A DNA stretch of 63,733 bases, the filler included, from Nemertoderma westbladi (lineage: Eukaryota > Animalia > Xenacoelomorpha), in assembly GCA_032718475.1 (NCBI GenBank). It is 3 parts of 3 records of this genome, joined end to end, with 100 filler letters (N's around TTAATTAATTAA, not from the genome) between each part and the next. Parts side by side here need not be neighbours in the genome. Positions count along the whole stretch, not along the records: positions 1 to 28,238 come from JAUCBJ010001173.1; 2 more parts are not named here. One strand, given 5' to 3'. The first letter of the stretch is position 1; each line of letters opens with the position of its first letter. The position numbers were made by a program, and so were the translations under genes. The notes beneath the pieces were generated by a model, which did no database searches, had not been told where the DNA came from, and worked only from the letters and a program-made list of their open reading frames with translations. Shown here piece after piece: positions 4,339 through 49,661 of the stretch.

Positions 4339-4358
4339 ATGGCACGTTATATTAACCA

Positions 4359-4600
4359 TATTAGAAAACAATTTATAACTGTGTCTCAAACAACCTTTTA
4401 ATCAATACATAAAATCGCTTTTCAAACTAGAAATAATATATCGTACAGTAAGTTACATTAACAGCTGATAGTCCATTTGAGTTTAGAAGACAAACAAACG
4501 CCCATCACCAATATACATAGAGATATTACAAAACAGAACTATATTGTGCAATACAGTTTGGCAGAGTACTTGACGAACCAATAATAAAATATTTCCAACA
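4359..4600 (-). repeat. Copia 3' LTR
   Basis: Direct repeat of 8892-9133; preceded on the minus strand by PPT GAGGGGAAG (4601-4609). Confidence 0.97.
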
Positions 4601-4648
4601 CTTCCCCTCGTCAAGTACGTCAGTTTATCTTGAGATCTGAGATGAAAT

Positions 4649-7600
4649 TTAACCCATCATTTTTGTTCTGAATTTTAAAAATTTTTCTTTGAATAGTGGT
4701 TTGGTCATAATGTCTGCGATCATATGTTCAGTTGGGCAATGTTTTAGAACAACAATCTTCTTATTAACCATGTCTCGAATGTAATGATATTTAATTTCTA
4801 TATGCTTAGTTCTTCCATGAAAACGTGGATTTTCCGATAACGCAATACACCCATTGTTATCCTCGAATAACGTAGTGCTCCCATTTTGGTCAATGCCTAA
4901 ATCCCCCAATAAAGTTCTTAACCACACTAACTCCCTGGTGGCGACACTAGCAGCAATATACTCTGCCTCCGTTGTACTCTGAGCCACAAGTGTTTGTTTT
5001 TTACACGCCCATGAAATAAGTGAATCGTTCACAAAGAACAAATATCCAGATATAGATTTTCTATCATAGTTTCTTCCCCAATCAGCATCTACATATCCAA
5101 CTAATTGAACACGGTTGTTAGATTGATCAGCAACATATTCAATGCCGACATCCATCGTTCCTTTAATGTATCTGAATATTCTCTTCACCGCTTTCCAGTG
5201 TTCCTCGCCTGGATTAGAACTGAATTGATTAACATTACTTAGTGCTGCAGCCAAGTCCGGTCTTGTAGCACAAACAGCATATGTCAGCCCTCCTATAGCC
5301 GCTTGATAACTCTTCTGATTAACTGACTCCCCTTCATTAAGTGACAAATTTGAATTGGCATCAAACGGTGTTGAGACAGTATTACAGTCTTGCATTCCAA
5401 ACTTATTTAAGAGATCTTCAAGATATGCTTGCTGATTTAATTTTAATTTTCGATTATCACGATCTCTTTCTATCTTGATTCCCAAGCAGTAACGTACTTC
5501 ACCTAAATCTTTTGTATTAAATCGCTCTGAAATTGCTAATTTTTCTTCCTTCAACATAATCATGGAATTGGAGCAAAGCAGTAAGTCATCTACATATAAC
5601 GCCAATATTAGAAAGTTATTACCTTCTCGTTTTATATAAATACATGGATCTGCATGCGATTGCATGTAGCCATTATCAACCAGATTGTCATGCATTGCTT
5701 TATTCCAACAACGAGATGCCTGCTTTAAGCCATATATGCTTTTCTCTAATTTACACACTAAATGTTCATCTCCTTTGAGAATAAAATGTTCAGGTTGTCT
5801 CATGTAAATTTCTTCCTCTAAAACTCCATTGAGAAATGCCGTTTCAACATCCATATGATGAACTTCCAAGTCAAGTTCATTGGCTAAAGATAGAATAGTA
5901 CGAACAGATGTGTAACGAACAACAGGAGCAAAAGTTTCTTGGTAGTCAATATTGGGTAATTGTGAGTACCCCTGAGCAACGAGACGAGCTTTATATCGTT
6001 CAATTTGACCATCACAACCTGTTTTCTCTTTAAAAACCCATTTACAACCCACAGCATTTCTTCCTTCTGGCAATTCAACTAATTTCCACGTGTCATTCTT
6101 TATCAACGAGTTATATTCCGTTTCAAGAGCCAATTTCCACTTTTCACTGTTCACACTATTGAGTACTTCATTTACTGTCTTTGGCGTTTCTCCTGACACA
6201 GAGAAAACCATATTCTCGAGATTCTCACCTTCTATCCAATCCCCATATCTATCTGGTTGTCTTTTTATGCGTGTAGATTTTCTTATAGACGATTCAGCCG
6301 ATTCATCATCATGGACTTTGTCATTTATGGTTGTCCCCTTAGCTACAATAGGTTCACTCTTAATGATATTTTCCACATCATTATCCACATTGATCACTTC
6401 ATCACACTCATTGATAATGTCACTTGTACTATGACTAATACGTCCATCGAAACTTAATTCATTAAACTTAATATCACGACTTGTTGATACCTTTTTTGTA
6501 TCCTTATTATATACTCGATATCCCTTCCTTTCACAATCATATCCAACGAACACATGTTTGACACTTTTAGCATCCCATTTCTTCCTTTTTTCGTCTGGAA
6601 CATGAACCCATGCGTCACACCCAAACACTTTAAACTCAGCTACTGATGGTTTAACTCCATAAAAACATTCATATGGTACTTTAGAACAAACGGCTTTGGT
6701 TGAACAGCGATTGTTTATAAACGCAGAAGTTAGAACAGCTTCTGCCCAAAATGAAATAGGTAGTTTAGCATATTGTAAAATTGCTCTCCCACTTTCAACC
6801 AAAGTTCGATTTTTTCTCTCAGCTATTCCGTTCTGTTGTGGTGAGTAACAAACAGTCATCTGTCTTAATATGCCTTTTTCCTTAAAATAATTTTTGAATG
6901 CATCATTGACGTACTCTGTTCCGTTGTCAAAGCGTAGTTTTTTAATTAGTTTTCCTGTTTGTCTCTCTGCCATATGTTTATATTCCAGAAACTTGTCTAT
7001 CACTTCGCTTTTGGCCTTCATAAAATATACCGCACAAAATCGAGATTTATCATCGATAAATGTCACAAAGTATCGATTCCCACCTAATGATACTTCAGAC
7101 ATGGGACCGCATACGTCAGAATGAACAAGTTGTAGAACACAATCGGATTTAGAGCTACTTTCCTTTGGAAATTCATTTCTGGATTGTTTTCCCAAAACAC
7201 ATCCTTCACAAAATTTCAACTGATCTTTCGTATTTAAGTCAATTCCATGTACAAGTTCATCATTAAACATTTTTCTTAATGTTTGTTCATTGACATGTCC
7301 AAGGCGACAATGCCACAAATCTATGTTTGATTCAGATTGAGCAAAATTTACCTCATGTTTCTCTTTATTTACGTGGCCTTCAAGCTCATATTGATTACCA
7401 TTCTCGGGAATTTTTGCAGTGATTAACAATTTATTGCTTTGTTCGCTAAATACATTACACATGTTCTCACTAAACACGACTTGGCAATCATGATTTGTTA
7501 TTTTCTTCACTGATAATAAATTTTGACACAAACTCGGAACAAATAAAACATTCTCAAATTGACATCTTTTAATCATAAATGCATCATTTAAATTGTTCCA

Positions 7601-8734
7601 TTTAACCATTCCAATACCCAAAGCTTCAACAGTTTCATTATTAGCTAAATGAATGACACTGGGATTTTGTAATTCAACGTATTCATGAAAATTATCACGT
7701 TTACAGCACATATGTTGCGTAGCTCCTGAATCTATAAACCATTTACTACTATTATCATATTTGTGAGATATTCCATTGCTCGATAAACACCAAAAGGTAA
7801 AATCATTCTCATCGTTTTCTAATCGAACTACATTAGCACCTTGGTTTGATAAACCAGAACTTCCTCTACTGTTCGTACTCGTAACATTATTATCTGGGCG
7901 TGTGCAGTATCTAGCTATATGCCCATATGTACCACAATTGAAACACCTTGGCGATTGGCCGAAGCTGTTCCTAGCACTGTAACTATTATTATTATTATTA
8001 GAATTACCTGCATTTCTAGGCCAGCTGCTACCTCTTCCTCTAGCAATACCACCGCGAAGTCCTCTGTTCCATGACGCACGACCTCTACCTTGATAATTAC
8101 CTGAAGCAGCATTGGCAAATAAAGCATCATTTTCGTTTGAATCAAATTTATGTGTTTCTTTCTTTTTTTGTTCTTCCATTAATAATTTTTGTCGCAGAAA
8201 TTCTATAGATAGATCATTAGACATTTCTAATGTGCTTACCAGCATTTCGTACGATCTTGGTAAACTAAGCAGTAATTCCCATATTTGCTCTTTTTCCGGC
8301 ACATTTGCTCCAATAGCATCCAGTTGAGCCGTCAATTCCTGATGCTTATTGATATGACTCATCATATCGTCGCCTTCTTGCATAACAGCGTCTCTATACT
8401 TTCTTTTATAATAAATTATATTTTGCATCGTTTGCATTTCGAACTGAGTCTTCAATCCATTCCACGCGTCTAATGTAGATGGTTTCCCCATCACTAGAGG
8501 TAATTGTGAATCGGCAAGATGCAAACTAATTTCTGCGCGAGCTTTCTGATCTTTCTTCAACCATTTTTGAAACGCATCGCCTGCTGCTTGTGGAGCGGGT
8601 TCACTACCATTTACAACATCCCACAGATCCATTGAAATCAGTACCATTTGCATTTTATGCTTCCACATAAACCAGTTTTGTCCTGTAAATTTATCAGTAC
8701 GTAAACCAACTTTATATTCACTGGACATCCTCAC
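4649..8734 (-). CDS. Copia Gag-Pol polyprotein (gag, CCHC knuckle, protease, integrase, RT, RNase H), 1361 aa
   Basis: CFNCGTYGHIARYC knuckle; WFIDSGATQH protease; WHCRLGH..CEGC and VHSDVCGP..FDNGTEY..NGIAERKNRTL integrase before RT (YKARLVAQG, LYVDDLL); RNase H YVDADW..TEAEY..FEDN..IADIMTK. Confidence 0.98.
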   Translation of the reverse strand: MRMSSEYKVGLRTDKFTGQNWFMWKHKMQMVLISMDLWDVVNGSEPAPQAAGDAFQKWLKKDQKARAEISLHLADSQLPLVMGKPSTLDAWNGLKTQFEMQTMQNIIYYKRKYRDAVMQEGDDMMSHINKHQELTAQLDAIGANVPEKEQIWELLLSLPRSYEMLVSTLEMSNDLSIEFLRQKLLMEEQKKKETHKFDSNENDALFANAASGNYQGRGRASWNRGLRGGIARGRGSSWPRNAGNSNNNNNSYSARNSFGQSPRCFNCGTYGHIARYCTRPDNNVTSTNSRGSSGLSNQGANVVRLENDENDFTFWCLSSNGISHKYDNSSKWFIDSGATQHMCCKRDNFHEYVELQNPSVIHLANNETVEALGIGMVKWNNLNDAFMIKRCQFENVLFVPSLCQNLLSVKKITNHDCQVVFSENMCNVFSEQSNKLLITAKIPENGNQYELEGHVNKEKHEVNFAQSESNIDLWHCRLGHVNEQTLRKMFNDELVHGIDLNTKDQLKFCEGCVLGKQSRNEFPKESSSKSDCVLQLVHSDVCGPMSEVSLGGNRYFVTFIDDKSRFCAVYFMKAKSEVIDKFLEYKHMAERQTGKLIKKLRFDNGTEYVNDAFKNYFKEKGILRQMTVCYSPQQNGIAERKNRTLVESGRAILQYAKLPISFWAEAVLTSAFINNRCSTKAVCSKVPYECFYGVKPSVAEFKVFGCDAWVHVPDEKRKKWDAKSVKHVFVGYDCERKGYRVYNKDTKKVSTSRDIKFNELSFDGRISHSTSDIINECDEVINVDNDVENIIKSEPIVAKGTTINDKVHDDESAESSIRKSTRIKRQPDRYGDWIEGENLENMVFSVSGETPKTVNEVLNSVNSEKWKLALETEYNSLIKNDTWKLVELPEGRNAVGCKWVFKEKTGCDGQIERYKARLVAQGYSQLPNIDYQETFAPVVRYTSVRTILSLANELDLEVHHMDVETAFLNGVLEEEIYMRQPEHFILKGDEHLVCKLEKSIYGLKQASRCWNKAMHDNLVDNGYMQSHADPCIYIKREGNNFLILALYVDDLLLCSNSMIMLKEEKLAISERFNTKDLGEVRYCLGIKIERDRDNRKLKLNQQAYLEDLLNKFGMQDCNTVSTPFDANSNLSLNEGESVNQKSYQAAIGGLTYAVCATRPDLAAALSNVNQFSSNPGEEHWKAVKRIFRYIKGTMDVGIEYVADQSNNRVQLVGYVDADWGRNYDRKSISGYLFFVNDSLISWACKKQTLVAQSTTEAEYIAASVATRELVWLRTLLGDLGIDQNGSTTLFEDNNGCIALSENPRFHGRTKHIEIKYHYIRDMVNKKIVVLKHCPTEHMIADIMTKPLFKEKFLKFRTKMMG

Positions 8735-8877
8735 AAGTTATATTACTCAACATAAATTTACTCTCAATTCTCAATAAAAGTTATACAGTACATTGTAATA
8801 CACAGTACGACAAACACAGTTCACATCATATTACCCATACAACAGAGGTCGGTTAGTACATGTTGTAATTAAACGTT

Positions 8878-8891
8878 CTGGGCCCATAACC
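8878..8891 (-). promoter_or_regulatory. Copia primer-binding site GGTTATGGGCCCAG (half-tRNAiMet type)
   Basis: Immediately follows the 5' LTR on the minus strand; matches the PBS type of Drosophila copia, which primes with a tRNAiMet fragment. Confidence 0.85.
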
Positions 8892-9133
8892 TATTAGAAA
8901 ACAATTTATAACTGTGTCTCAAACAACCTTTTAATCAATACATAAAATCGCTTTTCAAACTAGAAATAATATATCGTACAGTAAGTTACATTAACAGCTG
9001 ATAGTCCATTTGAGTTTAGAAGACAAACAAACGCCCATCACCAATATACATAGAGATATTACAAAACAGAACTATATTGTGCAATACAGTTTGGCAGAGT
9101 ACTTGACGAACCAATAATAAAATATTTCCAACA
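8892..9133 (-). repeat. Copia 5' LTR
   Basis: Direct repeat of 4359-4600, adjacent to the PBS. Confidence 0.97.
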
Positions 9134-10141
9134 AACCAAAACAATAAACTAAGCAGTATGCACAATAGAACAGGTTACAGTTTTATTTTTGAGAATAATC
9201 AGCTGTTATTTGCATTGAATTTCCCCTGGAGAGGGATGAATTTTTATTGCGTCCAGTTTCCCCCCCTATCTGTCGAAAATATACTCCGTAGGCCTAGTAC
9301 CTGGTGCCTCGGCACTCAGTAGGGGCCTACTACAGTACCGTAGTACTGTGGTGGTATTCGCCGCAGGTGGTAGGTGGTCGGCGCAGATAGTGTGGTCTAT
9401 CAGCTATGCTTTGTAGGCCTACAATGTACATAACATACCGCACTGTCTGTCTAGATAATATCTCAGCAAAATGAACCGTAAATGTTTTACGACACCCTAT
9501 ACAGTATAATACAAAATAAAACATACGTAGTTAATCTATTTTATATTAGGTCATGGCTAGCATGAGATATAGATACTGTATCAAACGTTGGAGTTTACAG
9601 TATACAATATAGAGTTATTCATTCATTCAGTTTTAGGTGAAATGTTTTCAAATTATTATTAAAGTAAAGGACCAAAATAACTATTTCATTTTTATTCCGC
9701 AATAAACTTTCGCCTATTACAGTGCACAACATACCTAGGCATCAGGTACTACCACCGTTGTACAGTATTAACCGTCTAGGCTAGGCAACTGGTACTGGGT
9801 AACTACCCGTAGCGGCAACCCAGTCCCGCTGTCCCGGCAACAGTCTAGCTGTACTTATTAATTATTTCGGACCAATTCGGACCAACATCCCATTTAGACC
9901 TTTGTATATTACTGTACGATAGTATCTGGTGCCTATTACTACATTATGCCGGGTAGTCTGGTGCCTCCTACACCGGGAAAGATTGTTGCGAAATAGCTGA
10001 GTTACTACAGTATGGGCGTTCGAACGTTGCACGGTTTTGCATCTGCGCGATGCCATTTTATCCTAATTAATAAATACAGGTACACCTGACTTCTGGAACA
10101 TTAAATGTATTTTAATATTATTATTGCTATTACGTAGCTAT

Positions 10142-10758
10142 TGTAAGCAGATACAATTCACTGCACTACCCAGCGGAAAATGGGGAAAGTGGCTTTTTAC
10201 CAATTATAGTTGGCTAGGTGACATCAGCAATATAATGTCACCTAACAACCAACAAAGGCAATATACATTGCCAGCCACAAGTAGAGATGAGAGGCTAGAA
10301 GCCATCTCAGGGGGACGAAGGGAGCTAGCGCGTGGGTATAAGGGAACAGGGAGTGCCAAGGGAAGGATGGATAGGTTAGCCAATGATGGGGCAGAACACC
10401 ATCTGATTAGGATGCATCCATTGGCCAGGCCACGCAGCAAGTAGCCATATTCCATATGTGTTAGTAATATAACCGTTGCATTTATTACCTGTTGTTCAGT
10501 TGGTTTGTGTAGAGATGTGGAAGCAAGACGGTTTAAACCGTCGTCATCGTCATTAACTGTGCTATTATTATATTCTGATTGTGCTATTATTGTATTCTGA
10601 CATTACGAACAACTGCCACTAAAACTCAGTTATTCTATCGGCCTCCGGCCTTTCAGATACCACAAGCCTTTCAGCAGCCAGCGGAAGCGGTGACGCGTAT
10701 TATCCAAAAGCAAACACATCGGTCAGGATTCCCTCACCAACTCAGGGATCCCATCACA
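10142..10758 (+). repeat. Element A 5' LTR
   Basis: Direct repeat of 20764-21368 with scattered substitutions and small indels; AATATAA at about 10466 and Inr-like TCAGTT at 10496. Confidence 0.93.
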
Positions 10759-10835
10759 GTTTAAACCTCGCTTAGAAACTTGAAAACCAGAATATGAGGT
10801 CCAAGACAAACTGTGACTGCGCAAACGCCAACGAG

Positions 10836-13800
10836 ATGAGTGAACAACAACCACCCCAAGGTCCAGAGGGAGGAGGAAGCCCGCCATGCACTCCGATTGA
10901 TAGAGACCAAACGATCCGGGAAGCAGCGACGAGAAGGTACCAGCCCGTCACACCGGATTCGCCGAGGAGAGACGGTTCGGTCAATGAGAAGGAGAACGGT
11001 CGAGTACGAGGAGAAGAGGGACGCGAGTCGGCACGGGATCAGAGTGGAGAACGAAGTACTGGAGTCGCCAGCCAACCAGTGGCTGAAGTCGCAATGGTGG
11101 GGCCGATGGTACGACGCCGGACGTGGAGAGAAGGTCAAGTTCAGGAGGAAGATGTCGGGACGAGCGATCGCCTACGACGAGGGTACAACGTGACAAGGAA
11201 GCTATACTCAAGGATGCTACGAGCGGAGGAAAGTTAGACCAGCCCAAGTTGTACCGGAGACTCGGTGAGTGCAATTAACATTTCCACTACCTAGTCCGAT
11301 TTTGGCAGGGGGAACTATCGAGTGAGAGGGCAAGGGCGGTCGCCACAGAACTGTTTGAATTGTGGCGATCCGAGATAATGCCACCTGGTGTAGTGTACGT
11401 AGGAATTATCTAGTGGATGCACGGGGGATTAAGTTAGTGGGATGGGCAGATCCGCACGACTGCTAGCAAGCACGGCAAAATTAGTAGAACGAACAGGCGA
11501 CGGGAGTCCGTCGCAACCGAAAAGTCTGCTACATCCTCCGCGAAAGCAAGAAGGGTGTTAGAGATAGATCTGGCGTGTCAGTTAGATATGGTTGCATTAG
11601 ATCAAAAGGAATTAGAGAGACAGCTGGATGAGGGGACTGCGTTATTAGAAAGGGAGCTAGCGAGAGTGTGTAAAGAGAGGGCTGATAAGGTGGTGAGAAA
11701 CTATAGGAAATGTGAGGAGATGGAAAAGAGTGAGCATGAAGAGCGGGAGGCGAGAGAGGTGAACGAGAGCAAAGAGCGAGAGGCGAGGAAAGCTGAGAGG
11801 ATTGCGAGGGAGGCAGAGTTAGCCAATCAGAGTGTTAGAGAGGATAGAGAGAGAGAGATATCTGGTAAGAGAATTCGGGATGATATGCATACCCGGTTGA
11901 CGGGGTTAATGCAGTATCAGGCGAAACAAAAGCGCCCATTAAAGCTGGCAAAAATGGGTTTATCAGAGAGCGAAGCTGGTTCGGGAAGTATTTACGAGGA
12001 ACCAGGGGTGATGGAAACCTTTGTTAATACCCCACTTACAGGTACCGGACGACAGACACAAAACTGGTGTGACCGGACGGATGGGGGGGGAGGTAACGAC
12101 AATACGTTTAATGAGAATGTTAATATTAATAATACCGTAATAGATAATCCTAACAATAATGAAACGTTTCTTACAGGAAATAATATTTTAATAGATATAA
12201 TGTAAATAAATATTGGTGCGCCGAATAACCAAAATAATTTAAATAATAATATTAGTAGTGGTACGATAAATAACAATATAATAAATAATCCTGGTGAAAT
12301 TAATCAAAATAATCTAAATAATAATATAATGAATAATCACGGCAAGGCTAGTGGCAGTACAATTAATATAAACATTAGTGAAGTATACAATGTATACAAG
12401 TATACATTGTATACAAAGTATACAAGTGAACTGGGGCTCCCAATGACGGAGGAGAATAGAGGGGGGCAACAGACGCCCCACGGATGTCTGCGGGAAATGC
12501 GCGCGGTGGGTTAGTGAACCGTGGCACCCAACAACGGGGGGAAAGGGGGGGGGGGGGGGGAACAGACGCCCCGCGAGCATTGGCGAAAAATGCGCGCAAT
12601 GAGTCAAGTGAACCGTGGCACCCAACGACGGAGGATAGTAGAAGGGCAACGGATATCCGCGAGGCCATACAACCAGGTAGAGGGAGGAATGTTGGTGCCG
12701 TAAGCGGCCAAACGAGAGAACGTCGAGGCCACTCGGAAGACGGAAGGAGAACAGTTCATCCGGGAGGTCGATACGAGACCTCATGAACATGGATATAATG
12801 TCGAAACCGGAGGATGCGAGGAGGAGCGAGGAGATGTTGCTACGGGCAACCTCTGATCTCGAGATAGGATGGACAGTGAACCATTGATAGTTGAAGTAGA
12901 GAGGGAGGGCCAGTGGGGTCGTACTCCGGGAGATTACCATTGCCCCGGAGAAACACAACCTGGCGAAATATATCACACACCGGGAGAGGGGTACAGAGTG
13001 TACCGGAACGAGGAGGAAGATAGAAGAGGGGATCGAAGGGAAACTTCCCATTGGAACGTAGCTGGTGATCGCAGGGAGGAGTTCTTGGAATATTCGAGAA
13101 GATTAAACTTCGATCCGGAGGAACACACCTACAGACTGCAGGACATACTGTAGGCCTTACTGCACATACTATAGGCCATGCTGGGAGAGATAGTGTAGGC
13201 GCTAGGGTAGCGCGAATGCCGGGATTGGACCCAGAGGTCGCGGCTTACATACCATTGAGTAGGCAGGAACCTGCTAGGAATATACCGGTACCTGCACACC
13301 AGTATGAATATAATATGCAGGGATATAACACATACCCAGGGGAGGGGGGGGGGTATTGCAGATAGCTGTATGCGCCCCAATATAATGACATCTGCCCCAG
13401 TGCCATTTATAACATCGGGGGGGGGGGGGGGGGGGCAGGGTGACATTCCCCCATTACTGTATCCGCAATAATGCAACCTAAAATAAAAAACGCGACCCCA
13501 AAGATCATGCAACATGGAGATATGGAGGGGACAGTTACCCCCGATGATATACCCTACTCAGGGAAAGTTGACGAAACCGAGAGGCGAAGCACAATCAACA
13601 TCGAAGGAGCCTGCATCCGTACCGTCAAGCGCACTGGAAATTCAAGCGATGGGAATGGCAACACTCATCGACGCGCTGAAAACTAGAATATAGCTGCCAC
13701 CAGTGGAGCCTTTTAAGTTTGATGTTAGCAAGCCGGAAGAATATCTACATTTCTAGAGGATGTCGAAAATCTCACACAGGCGGAGTGCCTTAAATATCCA

Positions 13801-16400
13801 CAAGTTTATACAGGGGGGCCAGCCTACGACATCGTGAGGCAATACCAAGGAATTGAAGGAGGATTTACAACCGCGTGGAGAGCCCTTGAACAGGAAATTT
13901 GGCCATCCTGCGAAGATTATCCGACAAACCTTAAGGGGAAGGGGAATAACATCAGGCGGACTCGCAGATAACCCTGTTAGCATCAAGACCTTCACTAACA
14001 AAGTAGAAAAGGCGCTGATAATCTTAAAGACCCTAGGCCTAGATGCACCATATTAACTCAATGCATCGAATAATATCACGACCATAGCGCAGGCACTTCT
14101 GATTTGGTTGAGGAACAAATGGAGAAAGATCGCTTTCTCCACTCGAGAGAAGAAGGGTGCAGAGCCAGGGTTGGAGGAGATGTTGAACTTCCTTAACTAC
14201 GAGGCGGATTTGATAACGGATCCAGTCTATAGTGGGGACAGTCTAGGCAAAGTACCGAAAACGGAATACAGCCGACCTAAACCCGAACATAGTGCGGCGA
14301 ATGCACTTCCAAAAGTGAGGCAGTTGCTACCATATGCGGCCACACAGGGGACTACAAGTCCGCAGAGTGCTGGGAGTAGAGCCACATCGTGGCAGGGACA
14401 GAAACAAAGCAACAAGACCAGTAGATATAAACCCAATACCCCCAGTAGGCCGAGTTCAAACAACCAAAACACCAAACTGCTAGATATGCATCTAAATGCA
14501 ATATGCGAAGCACTATATAAGGAATGCTACAACCCTGATTACAAATGCCGATTGCATAGGAGCGGGACATATAAGACCATAAACTGTAAGCATTGGCAGA
14601 TTAAACAAGACCAAATAGCCTCCACTGGAAAGAATGGCCCATGTCACCGATGCGCGGTAGGAGGGCACAGAAAGGATGAATGTCAAGAACCACCGATCAA
14701 GTATGCCAAGACTGATGGAACTGGAGGCCAGATGATGGCGACGAGCACCATGGGAGCAAGGTATTACTCGGAGTAGTACCAGTGAGAATAATTGGAGAAA
14801 GCGGACTATCGGTTGCAACATTAATGTTAGTCGATAGCGGAACAGCGTTCATGCTGACGGAGAGTTGGGTGGCTGTGAAGATAGGATTAAAGACCAGGCC
14901 AAGTAATATGGCGGTGACCATGATATCGAGCAAAGACGAGGTCATGAAGATGAGGATGGTACGGTGTGAAATTGGAGCAATAACACCAGGGTGCGACTAT
15001 GGGGCTACAATTGAACCCATTCAAATAATAGAGTCGATAAACATAAACGCCAGGCGACCTACAAAGATCGAGTCAAACAAAACCGGTACCTGGACGGCAT
15101 CGACTTCTCTGTGCCCAAACTAGATGTCCCGAAAGTGTCTCTCATAGTCGGCATGGACTGTCCGATGGCCCATGAGAGGTTGCAAACCATCTTCAGAGAC
15201 GACAAAGAGCGAGACCCGGTGGCCATTCTCACGTCATTCGGATGGATGCTCAGTGGCCCAATAAAGACGAGGATCCTGTTTAGCGTATCCGAATCCTCTG
15301 GATGCATGCTGTCCGGTACCTTTGAAGACATAGAGCAAAAGCAAAAGACGGGTGATGGGGAGGTTCCATATTGGAAGCGGCCCGAGCAGAAGTCAAAGAC
15401 GGGCGATGGGGGAGGTCCCATATGAGAAGCGGCCCGGGGAAGGATATCAGGAATCGGGGGCAGGAATGGATCTGGAACCACGCATAGTGGAAAGGGTGGA
15501 GGATGAGTCCAGAGAAATACCACCAATAGAAGAGTCAGGAGGAGGAGCAACAGCAAGAGAGTGGGCGGAGGAGAATGGGTTCAATGCACAGGACCTTGAG
15601 GCAATGGGATGGAACACAGACGTTCCTGGCAAGTATCAGTACGGGGATGGGAAAGAGTTGATGGCGAGATATCCAGAGAGATGCCCGGAAGAGACGCCGA
15701 TCCAATTGGGAAGTATACTGATACTAGGGGGATTGAACAAGAAGATAAGGATAAAGAAGAAGAAACATAACAGGGTTGATCCAAAGGGAGAGGATTTGAG
15801 GATAAAGGATGATGGGAATGGGAAAGTTAGAGGAGACGTGTTGAACACGGGACTGGCAGAGTGCGAGGGGGCATTAAATGTTAAACCATTTTGCGTACCG
15901 AATGATGACCAAGGGTCATCGGGGGCTTTAACGCCGGCACACATATTGAGGGGGAGGCCAGCAGAGGTGGAATGTACCAGTGACGATGATATGAAGGGGG
16001 GCATTCTACCGCCAAATGACTACAAGATGAAGGGTGGCATTCTGCCACCAAAAGACGATGACAAATTCTGTGAAATAGCGGGAAGGTCGGACCTGAGACA
16101 GGAGAAGAGGATGGGGGGGGGGGGGGGCAGTGACGGGCCAGATGTGATGTCAGTGGGCCAGAAGTGGATATGAATCCTACTGATGAAAAGACAACCAAGG
16201 GTAGCATTTGACTACAAAGGGAGGAATTTTATAAAGAAATGGCAAGTCTCCAGGATGAAGATGTCTATGACAGCAGGGGGCATTCTACTACTGAATGCTA
16301 CCCCAGCGAGGATGGAAAGATTAGATCCGTGGAAGTGAGGATCGGAGGAAAGATAGGGGCCAAAGATAGGAAGACCTACAGGAGGGCAGCGCCCTAATTA
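10836..16400 (+). pseudogene. Degraded BEL/Pao gag-protease with integrase C-terminal remnant
   Basis: Gag core (FGHPAKIIRQTL, LRNKWRKIAF..LEEMLNFLNYEA), knuckles (CRLHRSGTYKTINC, CHRCAVGGHRKDEC), protease (MLVDSGTAF, LIVGMDCP, TSFGWMLSGP), then ECEGALNVKP..ALTPAHILRGRP and ECYPSEDGKIRSVEVR. Many stops and frameshifts. Confidence 0.85.
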
Positions 16401-17379
16401 TTAGAGTCGTCCAATATATTGGACTGAGGGGGGTGGGAATGAGGGTGAGATGCCCTTCCCCACACACAAATAAAAATAAAATAATAAAATAAAAAATAAA
16501 AATGAGTAAGTAGTAGTACCAAGGTACAGTTTAGGTAGATATTATGTACATCTGATGGGTATGGACATAACAACGTACATAATATTTAGGTGTAGGTAGT
16601 TATAATTATGTACGTCGGATGGGTACGAAGGTACCAAAGTACCTAGTTTACATACGCACCACATGCCAGGTCAATGGGAGCAATATCAGTATATGATATA
16701 TACTGTAGTAGAAGGGTACATAGTACCATAGTAAGGATTGGAAGGGTATACATTGCGTACGTCTGATTGGCACAATGTGCCAATGTACGTAATAAATACC
16801 AAACATGCCGGGTCAATGGGACCAATATTAATACGTAATACATACTACAGTTGGCACTGAGGGTACCATGTGAGGAGTTAAATGGGGTATGTAGGCGTAG
16901 TAAAATAGACTGTGTAGGCCGCACGAACTAGACTACTATAGTGCATAGCCCGTAGTAAAGACTTAGGCTATTGTTACAGAGCCAGAAAGCTGTCTGGTAG
17001 GAAGCTAGTACAACAATAAGAAAACTGTAGCTAGTCTTCTCTGTAGACAAGTAGAGGTGAATTACTTACGTAGTAATTGAGTAGCAGGTAGAATAATAGG
17101 ACATGGGGGGGGGGGGGGAATATAAAAATAATAATAAAAAATTAGAAAATTATAGCAACTGGGAATAAGGATTCTAGAATCATTAATAAAAGTAACGGAC
17201 AGAATTACAAATTAGGACCAAAATTGGCACATAGGGGGAATATTTGTACAAAAAATCGACAAAAGACCAGATAGGAGGTAGGCCATCACTGATCAAAACT
17301 AATTAAAGACCATATTTAGTAATCTCTTACCTAACTGAGCCTTTCTAAGGCACCACCAGCCTGGTGAGAGAGTGGAATC

Positions 17380-18380
17380 GTGATGGTGGAGAAACTGGTG
17401 AAGAAGAGGAAGTCGGAGAAGAGCGGGAAGGAGTTACTAGTGGACTTCATGTTGAGGCATCCGGAGAATAAGACAACGGAATACTACAAACGACTCCTGA
17501 AGAGTCAGAAAGTGCATGCTCTACTAGATCAGTTTAGGGAGATGCACAAGCTACTACTAGTCGGGACCTATGGGATGCCGTCGTTGGATAACACGATCGA
17601 CGAGCATCTTCGCTACGTTGTAAAGGGAGACGAGGCTACCTTCAGGATACCGAAGTATGCGAGGGAACCACCTAGGAAGGAATGGAGGAGGTTTGTAGAT
17701 TCTGTGGAGAGGGGTGGATACATGATCCTAGATGACAAGGGGACTGTGGAGGATGACGAAGGGTCAAGAAGGGGGTCAGGAGGATCGGGTAGAACTATAT
17801 TGCTGCATTTAGCGGCGCCGAATGGAGATATCTTTCTATTCGACCTAGGGACCTATGGAAAGAGGAGCGGGCCGAAGTTAATCCACCTACCGGATGCGGT
17901 GCAGAAACTAGTAAGGTTGAAGACTACGATAAAGGTTGGATTGGCGATACGCGACGACGCGGAGAGGATTATTGGACCGGGCACCCCTCTTCTGGACATG
18001 CAGGTAGTCTACATGGCTATGACGAAACCAGATGGATTGGGATTGGTGGATAACACGGGACAATACGGAGCCGTGGTGATGGGCCAGCTGATGGGACTCA
18101 TCTGCCACAAGCTGACGGGGTGGAGCTTGCGAACTCACTCAAATGGGGAGCGAGATCGGGGAAGGAGGAGTTATATCACTTCTGGAAAGGAGCGATAAAG
18201 ATATATCAGAAGAGATATATCTTACAGGAGGACTGGATAATGACAGGTTTGCTGAACCTATTTATCACAGTGGTTATTGGCAGGGAGCCGACGGCGTTTC
18301 TACTGATGGGAGCAGCTTTGAGCCACAGGAGAGCCTTTAAGGTAGCCCTAGAAGGTCTTGTAGACCACCCAGGGTAGAAG
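17380..18380 (+). pseudogene. DEDDy (WRN/EXD/Mut-7-like) 3'-5' exonuclease-like domain within element A, frameshifted near 18120
   Basis: YMILDDKG (ExoI-like), LLHLAAPNGDIFLFDL, LPDAVQKLV..TIKVGLAIRDDA (ExoII-like), LLDMQVVY, and in the next frame FWKGAIKIYQKRYILQED (ExoIII-like W..Q..YxxxE/D). Confidence 0.65.
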
Positions 18381-19053
18381 GGCGAATCGGTGTATTCTGA
18401 TTCCCAACACCTGGTGGACATAGAGGTAGACACACCGTACAAATGATGGAAGAAACACGAGGCGGATAGAGAAAAGGAAAGGAGGCTAGAGGAAGTCGCC
18501 AGGAGAGAGAGGAGGGAGGCAGCAGGCAGAGAGGCAGATATAAGGGGAGGGGAGTACGATTTTGAGGCCCAAGATTTGGATGAGTTGAGGTGAGGATCGG
18601 AGATCTCGGGCGAGTTTCGGCTGGGGGACGAGGTGGATTGGATGGAAGAGACACTGATACAGTCTACATCGGGACTGCAAGGAATGCTGATGCCTGGGGG
18701 GGGGGGGGTCTGATGGCGACTTTGGAAGGAAGAGACCGAGGACGATGGAGGGGTGGAGGGTTACGGGCGAGTACCAGGCTGGAAAGGGACATGGTGGATC
18801 AACCGGGATCCCGGATTTGGAGCCGCTCGTGGCAGAGGAAGTAGAGGAGGACGAGTTTGGGAGGATACCGCCGATAGAGAGAATCAGCCGGTCAGACGCG
18901 GACTGGGTGGACGGGAGAGTGGTGACATCCAGTGGGGCGAGAGCCTTCTGGGACGCACCCGGCAAGCAAGCCTGGGAGCACGGGGAACCAATGACGGACT
19001 TCCTGGCGAACATGATTCGACTGGGTGAGCAACCGGGGGCGGCACCATGAGTA

Positions 19054-19608
19054 GTGTTTGGGGAAACGATGCCGAGGGAGGAGGAGGACGTTGACATGGG
19101 TAGGGAGGACAAGGTGGAAATGTTCACCTACCAGCGGCTCCATAGACCCAGGAGGCTATGTGGAGCCAAGGACGACTTGGGGCGAGATACAGTGATAGTC
19201 GGTTGCGACTACTGTGGGAGACAAACCCATCAGCAAAAGAACTGTCTGTATCATTACCAGAAGGGGATGACATGTCTATATTGCCGCGAGTCTACCCATA
19301 GGATGGGCCCGTGCCCAAGGTTGCACCACAGGTGTTCGAAGTGCAACTTTAGGGGGCACTTTGAGCGCCAGTGCGACTGGATGGAGGATGAGGAGAAATT
19401 CCGTATCTTCGAGGATTGGCCCGACATCGGAGTCATGACAAGGCAAAGGATGAAGGCCCAGGAGTTCCAGTGGGGGTTTTTCAACATTAACCTACAGGCC
19501 CACCAGGAGATTACCAAGAGGACACTACCATTCACGTATCAGGAGGTAGCGACAGCGGCATCATATGGAGGGGTCATTAACACCCAAAGATATAATCCAA
19601 AGCCATAA
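19054..19608 (+). pseudogene. Zinc-knuckle cluster, probably the C-terminal part of the extra ORF of element A
   Basis: CDYCGRQTHQQKNC, CLYCRESTHRMGPC and CSKCNFRGHFERQC: three CX2CX4HX4C motifs. Confidence 0.7.
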
Positions 19609-19988
19609 ACCAACGATTTATAAGAGGTCGCCAGAAAACAGGATGGAGTTCAGGTATTTTCTGGCGGAACATGTGCCGCGTGGGGTGAAGATGATCTTGT
19701 GGGACGGTACCAGGGGGAAGCAGGAGGGACACTCAGTGGGACCACCTGCGAAGCGATATCGCGAATTAATAACGCCCCCACCCAAGGATCCAACAACGGG
19801 GCTCGGCAAGACGGTATCAGCGAGAATGAGTAGCCTCAAGAGCAAACAGGAGGGGAGGAAGCAACCGAGGCAGGACGATGATAGAGGTAAAGAGCTGAGA
19901 TGGTTCCTGGAGGGTACGGGAGGAGGACTTTAGGACTCTATAACTGATTGCGGGCAATGTCAATGTGCCTGGAAGGCACCGCATGGAT

Positions 19989-20299
19989 ACATAAGTACAA
20001 ATAACTCTCAAGTGCAATTAATACAAGTGCAATTAGTATGTACGTACGTAATCAATTAATACTAGAGAAATATAATATACATAGAATAGTCAGATATAAC
20101 CTTTTCCAATTAGCTACTGGGACTGGGGACTAATTGACTGAAACATAAGTACAAATAACTCTCAAGTGCAATTAATACAAGTGCAATTAGTATGTACGTA
20201 CGTAATCAATTAATACTAGAGAAATATAATATACATAGAATAGTCAGATATAACCTTTTCCAATTAGCTACTGGGACTGGGGACTAATTGACTGAAACA
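19989..20299. repeat. 154-bp tandem duplication inside element A
   Basis: acataagtacaaataactc...gactgaa occurs at 19989 and again at 20143. Confidence 0.95.
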
Positions 20300-20763
20300 G
20301 GAGGACGGGACAATGACGGATCTCACTGACATGGTGAACACATGTGTGAGGCCTGATAGGAGTGTGTGGAGAGTGACAGCAAAAGGGGGTTGAGGATAAG
20401 AGAAACGTGGGAGGAAGGTGCTAGGACTTCGGGGAAAGTAAAGAGTGCGAGTGGGGAGCGAGCATAGAGGAGGATGAGTCCTATGGGACTAGTGAGCGAG
20501 GAGAACGGACGACAGAGTCCGACATAAATTGTGTGAGGAGAGAGAGCAATCGTCTAAAGAGAGACGCCAGATGCCTTGGTGCAGCTTAGCTCGCAGATGT
20601 ACCAAGGATGGGTAGTGAAAAGAGACCCAGGGGGGCCAGCCTGGAAACTTGGCCCCAAGAAGAGAATTCCACCCCACATCCAATATTAGATTGGATTCCA
20701 GCAGAATTGGAGCGTACTTAAGGTTGATGCTATCTTCTCACCGGGAAGATAGCATGGGGGGAG

Positions 20764-21368
20764 TGTAAGCGGATCCAATTCACTGCACTACCCAGTGGAA
20801 AATGGGGAAAGTTGTTTTTTACCAATTATAGTTGGCTAGGTGACATTAGCAATATAATGTCACCTAACAACCAACAAAGGCAATATACATTGCCAGCCAC
20901 AAGTAGAGATGAGAGGCTACAAGCCATCTCAGGGGGACGAAGGGAGCTAGCACGTGGGATAAGGGAACAGCGAGTGCCAAGGGAAGGAAGGATAGGTTAG
21001 CCAATGATGGGGCAGAACACCATCTGATTGGGATGCATCCATTGGCCAGGCCACACAGCAAGAAGCAATATTCCATGTGTTAGTAATATAACCGTTGCAT
21101 TTATTACCTGTTGTTCAGTTGGTTTGTGTAGAGATGTGGAAGCAAGACGGTTTAAACCGTCGTCATCGTCATTAACTGTGCTATTATTATATTCTGATTG
21201 TGCTATTATTGTATTCTGACATTACGAACAACTGCCACTAAAATCTATCGGCCTCAGGCCTTTCAGATACCACAAGCCTTTCACCAGCCAGCAGACGCAG
21301 CGACGCATACTATCCAAAAGCAAACACATCGGTCGGGATTTCCTCGCCAACTCGGGGATCCCGTCACA
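20764..21368 (+). repeat. Element A 3' LTR
   Basis: Direct repeat of 10142-10758, directly after the PPT. Confidence 0.93.
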
Positions 21369-21666
21369 GCGATGCAGTATTCATACATAAACAAAGTGTT
21401 CTAGAATATGGGGTACTTATTTATTAAATATAATAAGACTCGCGCACGTGCAAAACTCATGTGGGGGGGGGGGGGGGTGGCGGGCAAGTCACTGAATTAA
21501 GAAAATATATTCCAGGACATGGTGTGTGTTTCGCATAAAAATAAGTGTCTCCCCGGTTAATAATGTAAGATTCAAATGAAATTAAAGCAGTTTAGACTAT
21601 TACGAGCGTGCGAGGCAATAGTTGGAGCTTGTATTACATAATATAGAGAGAGTTATGTTTCTTTAT

Positions 21667-22827: not shown

Positions 22828-23149
22828 TGTAAGCGGTGATTAAAATAATTTGGTTATTCTCTAATTTTATTATTTGTACTTTATTTTAATTACTTTATTG
22901 TTATCGAAACTTTTAGGTAGTGTTTTAGACACGAAAAGGAATTAGGGAAGTAATGAATGGAGATTCGGGTCTCCCTAAGACCCGGTCCTGTCCCTGTCCC
23001 CGGTCCCCAAGACACCTAAAACCCGGTCCGCCGGTCCCAATGAAAGTCTACGTGGAATTCATCCAGAAAAAAGGACCGGGGAAATCCCGGTCGGTGCTGA
23101 CCCCTAAGAGTCGACCCCTTAAAAGCCGGCCCATGCTTGGATGAAAAAA

Positions 23150-38518: not shown

Positions 38519-39052
38519 TGTGACGGGATCCAGGAGGGATCCCGATTTATCCGATGTTTAGTTCACGCGTCCCCGCCGTGTGTAAAGAGTAAAATGAGTT
38601 CTGATGTTCGGTGTATATAATGATCAGTCTAATAAGATATAGATATAGGTTGTTGTACACGGAAGGCGGGATACGGTAACTAAAGTCCCGGTCCTTCCCT
38701 AGCTAAACTATCTAACTTAACTAGCACCAATACGATACTGGGATAACTGACTGATATGATTACTGGTAACTGGTTATATTGCACGGTGGCCTTATTGCTG
38801 TACCTAATCGATGCCTTTCCCCCCTCTGATTGGTTGATATCCCTGTTGGCACCCTTTGGAGTGTTTCCCTTCACTCCTTGTGTTCTCTCTCGGTTAGGGG
38901 TTTGGCCCCTGACCCTCCATTGTGTGTTTCTCCTTCCCTTCCCACTTTATTGGGGTAACACGAGGTTGATATTGGTAATCAACCTCGTGCTCCCAATATT
39001 GCTTAATGGCTCACTCTATGGGTTTGTGTTAGCGGAATTGGATAAGCTAACA
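38519..39052 (-). repeat. Element B 3' LTR
   Basis: Direct repeat of 46444-46979, adjacent to the PPT. Confidence 0.96.
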
Positions 39053-39671
39053 CTCCCCCCCATGCTATCTTCCCGGTAAGAAGATAGCATCCAACTAAAG
39101 TGCGCTACAATTCCGCTGGAACTCGATCTATTATCGGGTGTGGGGTGGGGTTATTTTCTTGGAGTCGGCTTTCCAGGCTGCTCCCTATGGGTATGATCTC
39201 ACTACCCTCTGGCGTCTCGTGTCGGGCCGATCGTGCGCTTCTCTCACACAATTTTTGTTTCCCCAACACTCTCGCCACTCTAACTTCGCTCTCTAACTCA
39301 ACTCGCTCTCTCCCCACTCTTACACTCTCCCCACACCTGAATCGCACTCTAACTTCTCGCCAACAGCTCTTCTCACTATCTCATCTCTACTCTCTGCTAC
39401 TCCCTAAGGCCCTAATCTCTAATGCTACCCCTGTGCTATCATACTATCTACCTTATCTAAGGTCTAACTTGCTAACTATCTAACTTCTCTAACTCTAACT
39501 AACTCCTAACTCTACTAACTCTACTCTACTCTCTGCTAACTCTTACTACTTCTAGCTCTAACTAAAAGCCTCTAACTTTCTACTAACTCTAACTAGAACT
39601 CTCTAACTTTCTGCTAAGTCTACTAACTATTTTCTAACTCTGACTAAAATCCTCCAACTAACTCTATCTCT

Positions 39672-40327: not shown

Positions 40328-43300
40328 TTAACTAGGGCGATTCTTCCAACAGGCACTCTCCCACTGCTGCTCTTGTAGGTCCTGTAGGATTCGCCGCACT
40401 CTCATCGCCAATTCCATCTCACCAGGAATTGGTTCTCCCTCTTCTGCCACCCTGAAATCGGGTCTCTCCGCCGCCTTCTTAACTAGCTCATCTCCTGGCA
40501 TCAAAATGCCACCTCTCTCCTTGTTGTCTCCCGCCGGCAGAATGAATAGAAAGTGAAAGAACAGGCAGAACAGAAGGTAGAATAATAGTCCTATCCCTTT
40601 CCATCCTGCCTTCCTTCTCGACTTCCCCCTTGTCGGTATGCCTCCAAACCGGACCTGCGTCTCTTCCGGACACTCCTCTGGACACTCCCCCGGAGTGTTG
40701 TCCTCCGGACACCTCGCCGTCCGCTCCGCTCCATCTCCATACCGATGCTTGCTGGGAAACCTACTCTCCTCTGCCCACTTTCTTACCGTCACCTCCCTAT
40801 TTGGCTCTACTATCTCTTGTATCTCCTCTACTTCCTCTGCGTCTTCGATGCCTGGTATCATGCACCCAGATGTCTCTGTCACACTGCATGGGATGTTGGT
40901 TTTAACTGGGCCGCTAAGCGTCCATCCGAACGGCGTGAGGATCGCCGTCGGGTCCCGCTGCCTGTCTTCGCCGAAGACCGTCTTCGTTCTCTCGTGGGCC
41001 GTCGGGCAGTCCATCCCTACTATAATGGACACCTTCCTAACGTCCACCTTTGGTATTGAGAAATCGATACCGTCCAGGAATCTATATTGCTCGACCTCAA
41101 TGTTGGTTGGTCGCCTGGCGTTGATGTTTATCGATTTGATGATGTGGATGGGGTCGATCGTCGCCCCATAGTCGCATCCCGGTGCAATCGCTGCTATCCT
41201 GCACCGCCCCGTCCTCGTCTCCAGGACCTCATCTTTACTCGAGACGGTAGTTACCGCCATTCTGTTCGGCCTCGTCTTTAGCCCTATCTCTTCGGCCACC
41301 CAGTTCTCCACCAGCGTGAAGGCTGCTCCGCTGTCGACCAGCATTAATGTCGTTACTGATCGACCGCCCTCTCCTGATATCTTTACTGGTACTACCCCGA
41401 GTAGTACTTTTCTCTTCTTCTCCTCTTCTATAGTGCTTGTGGCCATTGCCTGGCCTCCAGTCTCGGACTCTCTGACTGCTGTTTCTCTACACTCTCCGTA
41501 TCTGTGTCCCTCTACCACACATCGATGACATAGTCCGTTTGCGTCTGTGTAGGCTATACGATCTTGTTTGGGCAACGCTTGCCAGTGCTTACAACTCCTG
41601 GTCTTATGTGTTCCGTCCCGATGTAATTGACATTCGAATCCTGGATTATAGCGTTCCCTGTATAGTCCCTCACGTATCGCGCGTAGGTTTATATGTACCG
41701 ATTTAGTGTTTTGGTTGTCTGTATTCGGCCTACTGGGTACATTGGGATTATGTTTATTTATGGTGTTATTTTCTTTCTGTCCCTGCCACGGTGTGGCCCT
41801 ACTCCCAGCTAACTGTGGACTAGCAGTCCCCTGTGTGGCCGCATGTGGTAGTGATTGTCCTACTCTCGGGAATGGATCTGCAGGATCGTGTTCGGGTTTA
41901 TGGCTTGTCCCCAAACTGTCCTCGCTATAGACTGGGTCTGTTATTAATTCGGCTTCATAGTTGAGGAAGCTCGACATCTCTTCTAAGCCCGGTTCCGCAC
42001 CCTTCTTTTCCCGTGTGGAGAAAGCGATTTTCCTCCACTTCCTTCGTAACCAGACCGGCAGTGCCTGCGCTATCGTGGTGATGTTGTTAGACGCGTTGAG
42101 TTCGTATGGTGCGTCTAGCGTCTTTAACACGATTAACGCCTTCTCGACCTTGTTTGCAAAGGTCCTTATGCTAACAGGATTGTCCTGTAGGCCATCCGAT
42201 GTTATGCCTCTCAGGGTTTGCCGGATGATCTTGGCCGGGTGCCCGTATTCCCTATCTAGCACCCGCCATGCTGTCGTGAAGCCGCCCTCGATGCCCTGGT
42301 ATTGCCTCACGATGTCGTATGCTGGGCCTCCTGTATATACTTGCAGATATTTTAGGCACTCCGCCTGCGTCAAGTTCTTACTTAATATTTCGTTACTACC
42401 CAGTGAAAAGTGCGCAAGCGTATCGCAAGCGTGCAACGCAGGCGTATCTCATGTGATTCCCAAGAGTTATGGCCCGACCTTTACGCAAGCGACCTACTTG
42501 CGTTAAGCCGCATAGATATCGCAACAACTTGCGTTAAGTCACATAAATATCGCAACAACTTGCGTCCAGTCACATAAAACACACATGCGATTCACTTGCG
42601 ACTTTCAAGCGTGATGACGCATAAATATCACAAAAATCTACCGGTTGTGATTTTTGTGTAATATATTGAGACCTTTGTGACAGAAAATATGATACAGTAG
42701 TTGATTATTCCACTACTGTTTGATACTATGGGCTTCCATATCATCTGCCTACTGTACTTACAGTACCTTACATTACATTACATTACAATCTCTAGACATA
42801 GAATATTAGACATACGGTATGAATCAATACTAGAAATGGTTGTTAATATACAGGATAATACAAATAGATTAGAATAACCATGACACATTTTTAACTATTC
42901 CCTATAATTTTCAATTCTATAAAATATATTAATATAATCACTGAATTCGACAGCCATATTAGATAATTCATATTCATCAATTTTATATTTTAAAACTATT
43001 TATTTATTGATAGGCAACTTTATTTTAATTAATAATCTTGAGTGTAATTAAAACCATGCGATTCACATGGGAATTAACGCATGATATTCTCATTGTGTAA
43101 AACATGCGTAAAATAAGTGTTAAATGAGGTGTGATTCGCATGCGATTTTCATGCACGGAATCACATGCGTAAAATAAGTTGTGAATCGCATGCGTGGAAT
43201 CGCTTCCCTATTTTACATGTGAATCACATGCGAATCACAAGAGTTTTATCGCTATTTATTGACCCGCAATTAAAACGCATGTCGCATTAAAATCACTTGC

Positions 43301-46374: not shown

Positions 46375-46443
46375 CTTCGTCTTTAGTGATTGGTGGCTGG
46401 TGGTTATTGAGTTTATCCAGGGCAGCAGCACGGATTTAGTTAC

Positions 46444-46979
46444 TGTGACGGGATCCAGGAGGGATCCCGATTTATCCGATGTTTAGTTCACGCGTCCCCG
46501 CCGTGTGTAAAGAGTAAAATGAGTTCTGATGTTCGGTGTATATAATGATCAGTCTAATAAGATATAGATATAGGTTGTTGTACACGGAAGGCGGGATACG
46601 GTAACTAAAGTCCCGGTCCTTCCCTAGCTAAACTATCTAACTTAACTAGCACCAATACGATACTGGGATAACTGACTGATATGATTACTGGTAACTGGTT
46701 ATATTGCACGGTGGCCTTATTGCTGTACCTAATCGATGCCTTTCCCCCCTCTGATTGGTTGATATCCCTGTTGGCACCCTTTGGAGTGTTTCCCTTCACT
46801 CCTTGTGTTCTCTCTCGGTTAGGGGTTTGGCCCCTGACCCTCCATTGTGTGTTTCTCCTTCCCTTCCCACTTTATTGGGGTGACACGAGGTTGATATTGG
46901 TAATCAACCTCGTGCTCCCAATATTGCTTTATGGCTCACTCTATGGGTTTGTGTGTTAGCGGAATTGGATAAGCTAACA
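46444..46979 (-). repeat. Element B 5' LTR
   Basis: Direct repeat of 38519-39052; sense-strand AATATAA followed by Inr-like TCAGT. Confidence 0.96.
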
Positions 46980-49487: not shown

Positions 49488-49661
49488 TTGGTGGGTTCTA
49501 CCCTTATTATGTTTATGTAACATTTAAATGCAGGTGGCGGGAAATTCAAAATGTATTCTAGCTTAGGATAAGTACGACTAATATACTACGGGATTACCGA
49601 TATACAGGATAAACTTAATTTACCTTTTTGCATGATCTAACTATATTATTAAGATCACAGC

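Follow-up and report, generated by a model that had tools for sequence, protein, structure and literature searches.

Two BEL/Pao-derived LTR retrotransposons of Nemertoderma westbladi, here called elements A and B, likely prime minus-strand synthesis with a 5' segment cleaved from their own RNA. They lie in a stretch of 63,733 nucleotides from assembly GCA_032718475.1 that was analysed as a whole and is referred to as the window. In a broad BEL/Pao clade to which we connect them, tRNA priming has probably given way to self-priming, with a primer put together from two LTR exons by the host spliceosome and with splicing as the licence for reverse transcription; lineages without the intron, among them A and B, would derive from a spliced 3' LTR copy and carry the primer ready-made.

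Anatomy and classification of elements A and B

The two elements and their parts are as follows.

10142-21368, plus strand: element A, BEL/Pao derivative
10142..10758, plus strand: 5' LTR of A, TG..CA, 617 nt (two-copy match, 93.7% identity to 20764-21368)
13661..15290, plus strand: BEL gag (capsid) and protease of A, frameshifted (hmmsearch; tblastn with BEL polyproteins)
15826..15963, plus strand: short BEL integrase remnant of A (profile positions 1619-1664, iE 0.0008; tblastn E 2e-5)
17368-18195, plus strand: 276-codon ORF inside A (Atlas: WRN-like 3'-5' exonuclease clusters, 0.84, lead only)
19051-19605, plus strand: 185-codon ORF in the 3' region of A with three CCHC-like knuckles (Atlas 0.79, zf-CCHC clusters)
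20744..20763, plus strand: polypurine tract of A, nearly identical to that of B
20764..21368, plus strand: 3' LTR of A, with the same partner site as the 5' copy
46979-38519, minus strand: element B, BEL/Pao derivative
46444..46979, minus strand: 5' LTR of B, 536 nt (99.3% identity to 39052-38519)
40328..42448, minus strand: BEL gag (DUF1759) and aspartyl protease ORF of B, 706 codons (domain and profile searches)
39053..39073, minus strand: polypurine tract of B, nearly identical to that of A
38519..39052, minus strand: 3' LTR of B (self-comparison of the window)

The target site duplication of B is exact over 5 bp (TTGTT), while the flanks of A agree at four of five positions (GCTAT, 10137-10141; GCGAT, 21369-21373). 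Because of the duplication around B and the divergence in both LTR pairs, the LTR ends could be fixed without recourse to pairing. DUF1759 was detected in B with an E value of 2.6e-8, and the Pfam match to Asp_protease_2 in A is weak. A profile built from 18 BEL polyproteins related to the B gag-protease found gag-protease in both elements (iE 1.9e-69), no reverse transcriptase (RT) or RNase H in either, and no integrase in B; the remnant in A amounts to 46 codons. The gag-protease DNA of A and B is 71% identical, and their LTRs are weakly similar to each other. As BEL/Pao elements, both possess TG..CA LTRs, a target site duplication, a polypurine tract and a BEL-type gag-protease and lack the RT-RNase H-integrase set as well as the 18-nt tRNA-Arg or tRNA-Gly site. 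A and B are thus non-autonomous BEL derivatives, incomplete as members. Closest relatives of the B gag-protease share 22-37% identity with it (HMMER, 1.84 billion representatives), and all eight long relatives of the protein that were scanned contain BEL domains. A word-indexed search for longer relatives returned none, although the HMMER search did recover relatives. Element B looks recently mobilised; contigs resembling its LTR are abundant in runs of three studies, where depth does not equal copy number. The ORF at 17368-18195 looks like captured cargo.

The window also contains the following features.

4353-9133, minus strand: young copia element, LTRs 99.6% identical, 1362-codon ORF (self-comparison, domain search)
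21667-22839, minus strand: serpin, a single uninterrupted ORF just outside the 3' LTR of A, with about 41% identity or less to anything found
49606-56400 and 57169-58220, strand not given: 28-nt satellite with about 240 copies, and 53-nt tandem array (self-comparison)
63539-63733, minus strand: part of the gag of a third BEL-like element, truncated where the window ends, 68% identical to B gag

The best matches of the serpin, at about 35-41%, come from many animal groups and bacteria. The LTR of the copia element ends in TAATA and is followed by a candidate half-tRNA-type site, which we take to be of the half-tRNA-iMet type. This contrast with A and B, which have no TGG, was counted in favour of self-priming.

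Pairing of the post-LTR site with the element's own LTR

The initial annotation had proposed that neither 5' LTR is followed by TGG and that the post-LTR sequence pairs instead with the LTR of the same element. With the 5' LTR ends fixed, the 8 nt after the LTR indeed contain no TGG in A or B, and both helices were recovered. In A, 10759-10767 form nine Watson-Crick pairs with 10538-10530, C10529 is bulged and 10768-10769 pair with 10528-10527; in B, 46443-46435 form nine Watson-Crick pairs with 46601-46609, C46610 is bulged and three pairs follow. The arms are 220 nt apart in A and 157 nt apart in B. Other details of that description also proved correct, namely the CGT after the partner site in both elements, the GGATCC-type hairpin closing both LTRs and, by direct reading of the sequence, the TATA/Inr-like pair upstream of both partner sites. 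The distance from TATAA to the A of TCAGTT is exactly 30 nt in both elements (10468/10498; 46703/46673), and a transcript starting there would begin 29 nt (A) or 60 nt (B) upstream of the partner.

10468..10501, plus strand: TATAA (10468) and Inr-like TCAGTT (A at 10498) of A, predicted transcription start (motifs only; identical spacing in B)
10527..10538, plus strand: candidate self-primer 3' segment of A, 9 bp, bulged C10529 and 2 bp; predicted cut after 10538 (pairing)
10539..10697, plus strand: second helix of A, 10539-10550 with 10687-10697, adjoining the primer helix (predicted fold)
10726..10751, plus strand: U5 terminal hairpin of A (predicted fold)
10759..10769, plus strand: candidate non-tRNA primer-binding site of A, flush with the LTR end (pairing)
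46670..46703, minus strand: TATAA (46703) and Inr-like TCAGTT (A at 46673) of B, predicted transcription start (motifs only)
46601..46613, minus strand: candidate self-primer 3' segment of B, 9 bp, bulged C46610 and 3 bp; predicted cut after 46601 (pairing; family variants mostly compatible)
46493..46600, minus strand: second helix of B, 46600-46590 with 46502-46493 (predicted fold)
46449..46469, minus strand: U5 terminal hairpin of B, 8 bp (predicted fold)
46432..46443, minus strand: candidate non-tRNA primer-binding site of B, flush with the LTR end (pairing)

The U5 terminal hairpin motif is common to all four LTRs. A given 9-mer had been estimated to occur by chance about 0.002 times per 600 nt at equal base frequencies, and the match does exceed chance, but its strength per element is lower than this figure implies. 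Compared with random internal 25-35-mers, the helices reached p = 0.043 (A) and 0.030 (B) when G-U pairs and an offset of 0-5 nt were allowed, and p = 0.013 (A) and 0.007 (B) with Watson-Crick pairs only. Duplex energy alone did not set the sites apart (p 0.17 and 0.29 for A and B; combined p 0.33), and with G-U allowed the 3' host flank of B scores equal to its post-LTR sequence. The matches in A and B by themselves are modest, and the evidential weight rests on the relatives.

Folding predictions vary with the ends chosen, giving pairing probabilities for the nine base pairs of 0.00-0.99 in A and 0.00-0.89 in B. The best fold of A from the predicted start prefers a local hairpin and does not contain the primer helix (z -0.38); the best fold of B includes it (z -2.26). 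The predicted folds of both are nested multi-helix junctions, not pretzels, and change with the segment folded. The A 9-mer is near-palindromic, as had been noted, and a competing local hairpin forms there. The bulged C does not fit easily with a primer that is simply copied past base 9. Both partner sites (10527-10542 and 46615-46592) can form an alternative local hairpin with the bases just 3' of them, for which a dimer or switch role is possible, and near-palindromic partner sites also occur in several relatives. For A, an Rfam search of 10100-21500 (E up to 1) gave no match at all, including none to the known self-cleaving ribozymes that mark retrozymes and other ribozyme-bearing LTR elements.

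For the B family, variants of at least 4% were read in three runs belonging to two studies. The primer helix contains four of them: one on each side of pair 5, one that gives a G-U pair and one at the bulge. On the partner side two positions vary, the bulge and pair 5, and the binding site varies complementarily at pair 5; these pair-5 variants, at 46439 and 46605 (C to T, 8-10%; G to A, 15-27%), are unequal in frequency and unphased. A variant at 46432 (11-17%, three runs) breaks the last pair of the helix. Neither the second helix nor the U5 hairpin has a listed variant at this threshold. Of the paired positions 3/61 vary, and of the others 28/121 (p 0.0015); with the low-depth middle left out, the counts are 3/61 and 9/58 (p 0.07).

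A predicted intron within the putative primer of related elements

The relatives comprise 78 BEL loci from metagenome assemblies; the scan of viral contigs for BEL elements yielded 0 loci, and the exact polypurine-tract pattern was found 0 times in metagenome contigs. For eight loci, termed boundary-fixed, the 5' LTR end is set by two diverging LTR copies. The set leaves out L074 and L077, whose ends are ambiguous, L039, in which identity continues beyond the end, L042, where a 35-nt repeat is spurious, and any locus with a repeat terminating at a contig end; the end of L022 was placed by eye, 10 nt before the BLAST end. A candidate end at L042:2462 was rejected, the true junction of L042 lying in its tail. 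TGG follows the 5' LTR in none of the eight.

Without splicing, plain helix length in the eight relatives plus A and B gave a combined p of 0.0016, compared with 0.33 for the 3' flank control (nine elements). Many partners break off after 4-7 pairs at an AG behind a pyrimidine tract, and an upstream GT donor supplies the remainder. A start of the partner at an Inr "YYAG" in the relatives was considered and rejected, since a pyrimidine tract precedes these AGs and a matching donor exists for them. When one GT..AG removal is allowed, L004, L012, L014, L022 and L076 reach 11-15 perfect pairs, and L029 and L057 reach 11 and 13 pairs across the junction with a wider donor set; with L036 contiguous over 11 bp, the other seven of the eight have 11-15 bp via a junction. 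The combined p for the ten boundary-fixed elements, A and B included, is then 4.5e-11, under a splice model devised after viewing some of the loci later used to test it.

A scan blind to the LTR end found a perfect complement of 10-15 bp over a GT..AG junction in 23/66 loci (20 distinct families) and in 0/66 with reversed queries; no real score equalled 9. Twelve of the 78 loci had been skipped (less than 500 nt upstream), and the donor set, widened after the earlier tests, was used in the control as well. LTR ends predicted by the scan agree with two-copy ends wherever both exist (L004, L012, L057 and, through L030, L029). The 43/66 loci without a junction helix of at least 10 bp include some that start inside or after the LTR, some with contiguous helices, which lay outside the query of the scan, and L067 and L074/L075, which are unexplained. 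At L067:880-985 the acceptor context is nearly identical to the B partner and its next bases, and no matching donor was found.

The predicted GT..AG segment that splits the paired bases measures 70-430 nt. Its reality as an intron is supported by L060 and L052, which are nearly identical in RT: L060 is without exactly the 168-nt GT..AG segment present in the 3' LTR of L052 and has 11 bp contiguous. L060 would thus bear the usual mark of intron loss through RNA. In the upstream LTR copy of L052 (L052:509-829) the match to the 3' LTR begins no earlier than 14 nt ahead of the predicted donor, behind an unrelated TATATA; this boundary may be a transcript start or an assembly chimera.

Thirty-two elements, chosen because the helix is present, were tabulated. 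Twenty-four are of the junction type and eight contiguous, and the modal helix length of exactly 11 bp occurs in 19. The helix begins 0-6 nt from the LTR end and is nearly all Watson-Crick, though one G-U was permitted; TGG within 8 nt of the LTR end was seen in 0/32. The post-LTR 11-mers comprise 28 distinct sequences, each of which finds its complement in the LTR of its own element, and another family's site reached 9 bp on a given LTR in only 4/790 trials. Distant BEL families preserve the pairing in different letters. In A and B the partner is found 3' of the TATA/Inr-like motifs, and in the relatives 3' of the predicted intron. On both sides of the helix, the first pair is A-T, not the usual G-C, in L014, L027, L031, L049 and L059.

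A and B, with only nine contiguous pairs, have the shortest helices of the 32. An intron was rejected for both: the best junction gives 5 bp against 9 contiguous in A, and 8 bp, with a donor upstream of the TATA motif, against 9 contiguous in B. They are the intron-less form. In the gag-protease tree (40/78 loci plus the 25 best proteins), B groups with the boundary-fixed L076 and with L078 at a FastTree support of 1.0, on a long branch (1.43) and with at most 30% identity to all relatives; the RT tree covered 65/78 loci by a quick method. The link of A and B to the wider set depends on the grouping of B and on the common geometry.

Proposed mechanism, alternatives and known systems

The initial annotation had read the post-LTR pairing as tRNA-independent priming in a BEL lineage, and the flush helix and the family-by-family covariation in the relatives support this reading. 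In the sequences analysed, none of the three outcomes named there as refuting it came to light: a tRNA-type TGG is missing after the LTRs, the complementarity persists in other families, and the partner sites follow the predicted start in A and B or the predicted intron in the relatives. Transcription by Pol II would start at the Inr-like site about 30 nt (A) or 60 nt (B) upstream of the partner, and in the folded RNA the partner would be paired to the post-LTR site, next to the second helix and the U5 terminal hairpin. Cleavage just 3' of the partner sequence (after 10538 or 46601), by a nuclease that on the model of Tf1 would be the RNase H of the partner element's RT, would leave a 3'-OH primer of about 41 nt (A) or 73 nt (B), probably longer than that of Tf1. 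Lacking both RT and RNase H, A and B would depend on an enzyme supplied in trans by a predicted autonomous element. RT would extend the primer into the terminal CA, copy U5 back to the cut and jump to the 3' LTR; plus-strand copying of the primer would then restore the binding site with LTR-derived bases, which would account for Watson-Crick matches that are near-perfect in every family. In intron-bearing relatives host splicing would first have to build the primer, because 10-15 paired bases are split by a GT..AG segment in most readable relatives. Only sequence downstream of the cut would be copied before the first jump, so that an LTR intron would be inherited from the 3' copy, passed on if that copy is unspliced and lost if it is spliced. 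This would explain both the persistence of the intron and its precise loss.

The pairing can be explained in other ways. Element RNA could prime without being cut in cis if a short LTR transcript or a 3' R copy were trimmed to the duplex, possibly by a 3'-5' exonuclease, and annealed in trans. The partner is present in both LTR copies, AATAAA or ATTAAA occurs between partner and LTR end in 15/25 tabulated elements, and the ORF at 17368-18195 of A has WRN-like exonucleases as its nearest Atlas clusters. That ORF has no Pfam or PDB match, however; no exonuclease-like ORF was recognised in B or in the polyproteins of any of the eight scanned relatives, neither signal is found in A or B, and the second helix fits an intramolecular fold, so we regard such trans-priming as unlikely. 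It is quite unlikely, too, that the helix is a conserved RNA switch (in packaging, dimerisation, poly(A) addition, translation control or the sensing of splicing) and that priming occurs by other means. Conservation proves function, not its kind, and both the competing hairpins at the partner in A and B and the near-palindromic nature of several sites would suit a switch. Nevertheless, the start of the helix is 0-6 nt away from the LTR end, at the very place that a primer has to occupy, its modal 11 bp equal those of Tf1, it is nearly purely Watson-Crick, and no alternative primer site is visible.

Priming by a host tRNA fragment or another small RNA, with the LTR match secondary, is very improbable. 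Sites based on tRNA are of few kinds and conserved, whereas here 28 different 11-mers each fit their own LTR or junction and rarely another's. Precedent exists in the half-tRNA priming reported for copia lineages in the available part of PMC6317226. No tRNA genes were found in the window or in the fetched loci. The chance that the matches in A and B are mere coincidence we consider practically negligible: despite AT-rich sites, the near-palindrome in A and per-element p values of only 0.007-0.043, the geometry of A recurs, in other letters, in the weakly similar LTR of B, and the relatives show the same position and the same GT start. Self-priming by the cut 5' end is thus the reading that we prefer.

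If it is true, self-priming occurs in a third LTR superfamily and across a wide clade. A splice-built primer would couple reverse transcription to RNA processing by the host and would allow a precise and cheap test, with a single junction and a single cut site to look for in each family. It would also bear on whether hairpin or self-priming preceded tRNA priming, as proposed in the accessible text of PMC3601003. Annotation tools that demand a tRNA site would overlook or misinterpret these elements.

That BEL/Pao elements are described as tRNA-primed, as the initial annotation had stated, is borne out by the ICTV profile of the Belpaoviridae, which gives host-tRNA priming from an 18-nt site complementary to tRNA-Arg or tRNA-Gly (PMC8742986) and is at odds with our reading of A and B. 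They resemble that family (BEL-Pao, Semotivirus) in their TG..CA LTRs, 5-bp target site duplication, DUF1759 gag, protease and polypurine tract, and the relatives carry BEL polyprotein domains; they differ from the profile in having no tRNA site, RT or RNase H (PMC8742986). In the titles and abstract openings covered, with subscription papers, Repbase reports and GyDB largely outside that coverage, we found no description of self-priming or a split primer in BEL elements. Term look-up in the available text of the BEL surveys PMC3118150, PMC554778, PMC6238403 and PMC8556966 gave no mention of a primer-binding site or of priming, and the corresponding text of PMC8220671 refers to the site only in general terms; PMC12440569 gave no hit. 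Fungal GalEa elements, with their "conserved hairpin site", and bivalve TRIMs likewise have no canonical tRNA site, and a 9-bp complementarity has been proposed instead; according to the excerpted account, their inverted repeats are confined to the inner domain, with 12-41 bp between them, and do not connect the LTR with the post-LTR sequence (PMC6934838).

Self-priming is established for Tf1 and has been proposed for Tf1/sushi, Tcn1 and copia TAR elements, as far as the accessible parts of PMC7175516, PMC4600332, PMC10085805 and PMC6317226 indicate. For the TAR lineage of plant Ty1/copia elements (Houba, Osr-1) and the Tcn1 clade it was predicted, as here, from sequence alone; those are plant and fungal copia and gypsy elements, and a split primer is not mentioned in the consulted portion of PMC6317226. 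In Tf1, by the available sections of PMC7175516, PMC10085805 and PMC4600332, pairing involves the 11 bases at the very 5' end, and cleavage by RNase H falls between bases 11 and 12. A and B differ in that the paired segment is predicted to lie 30-60 nt inside the transcript and not at base 1, the flanking helices are predicted to be nested instead of forming the "pretzel" of three duplexes, and a C is bulged; in the relatives the segment is split by a predicted intron. Their proteins are of the BEL type and not Ty3/gypsy chromovirus Pol, which places them in another superfamily than Tf1/sushi. Shared with Tf1, Tf2, Tj1 and Tf1/sushi (Ty3/gypsy chromoviruses), as partly described for these, are a site next to the 5' LTR that is complementary to the element's own R, about 11 pairs and, by prediction in A and B, a multi-helix leader. 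The feature seen in A and B is real and would work like Tf1 self-priming, outside that group.
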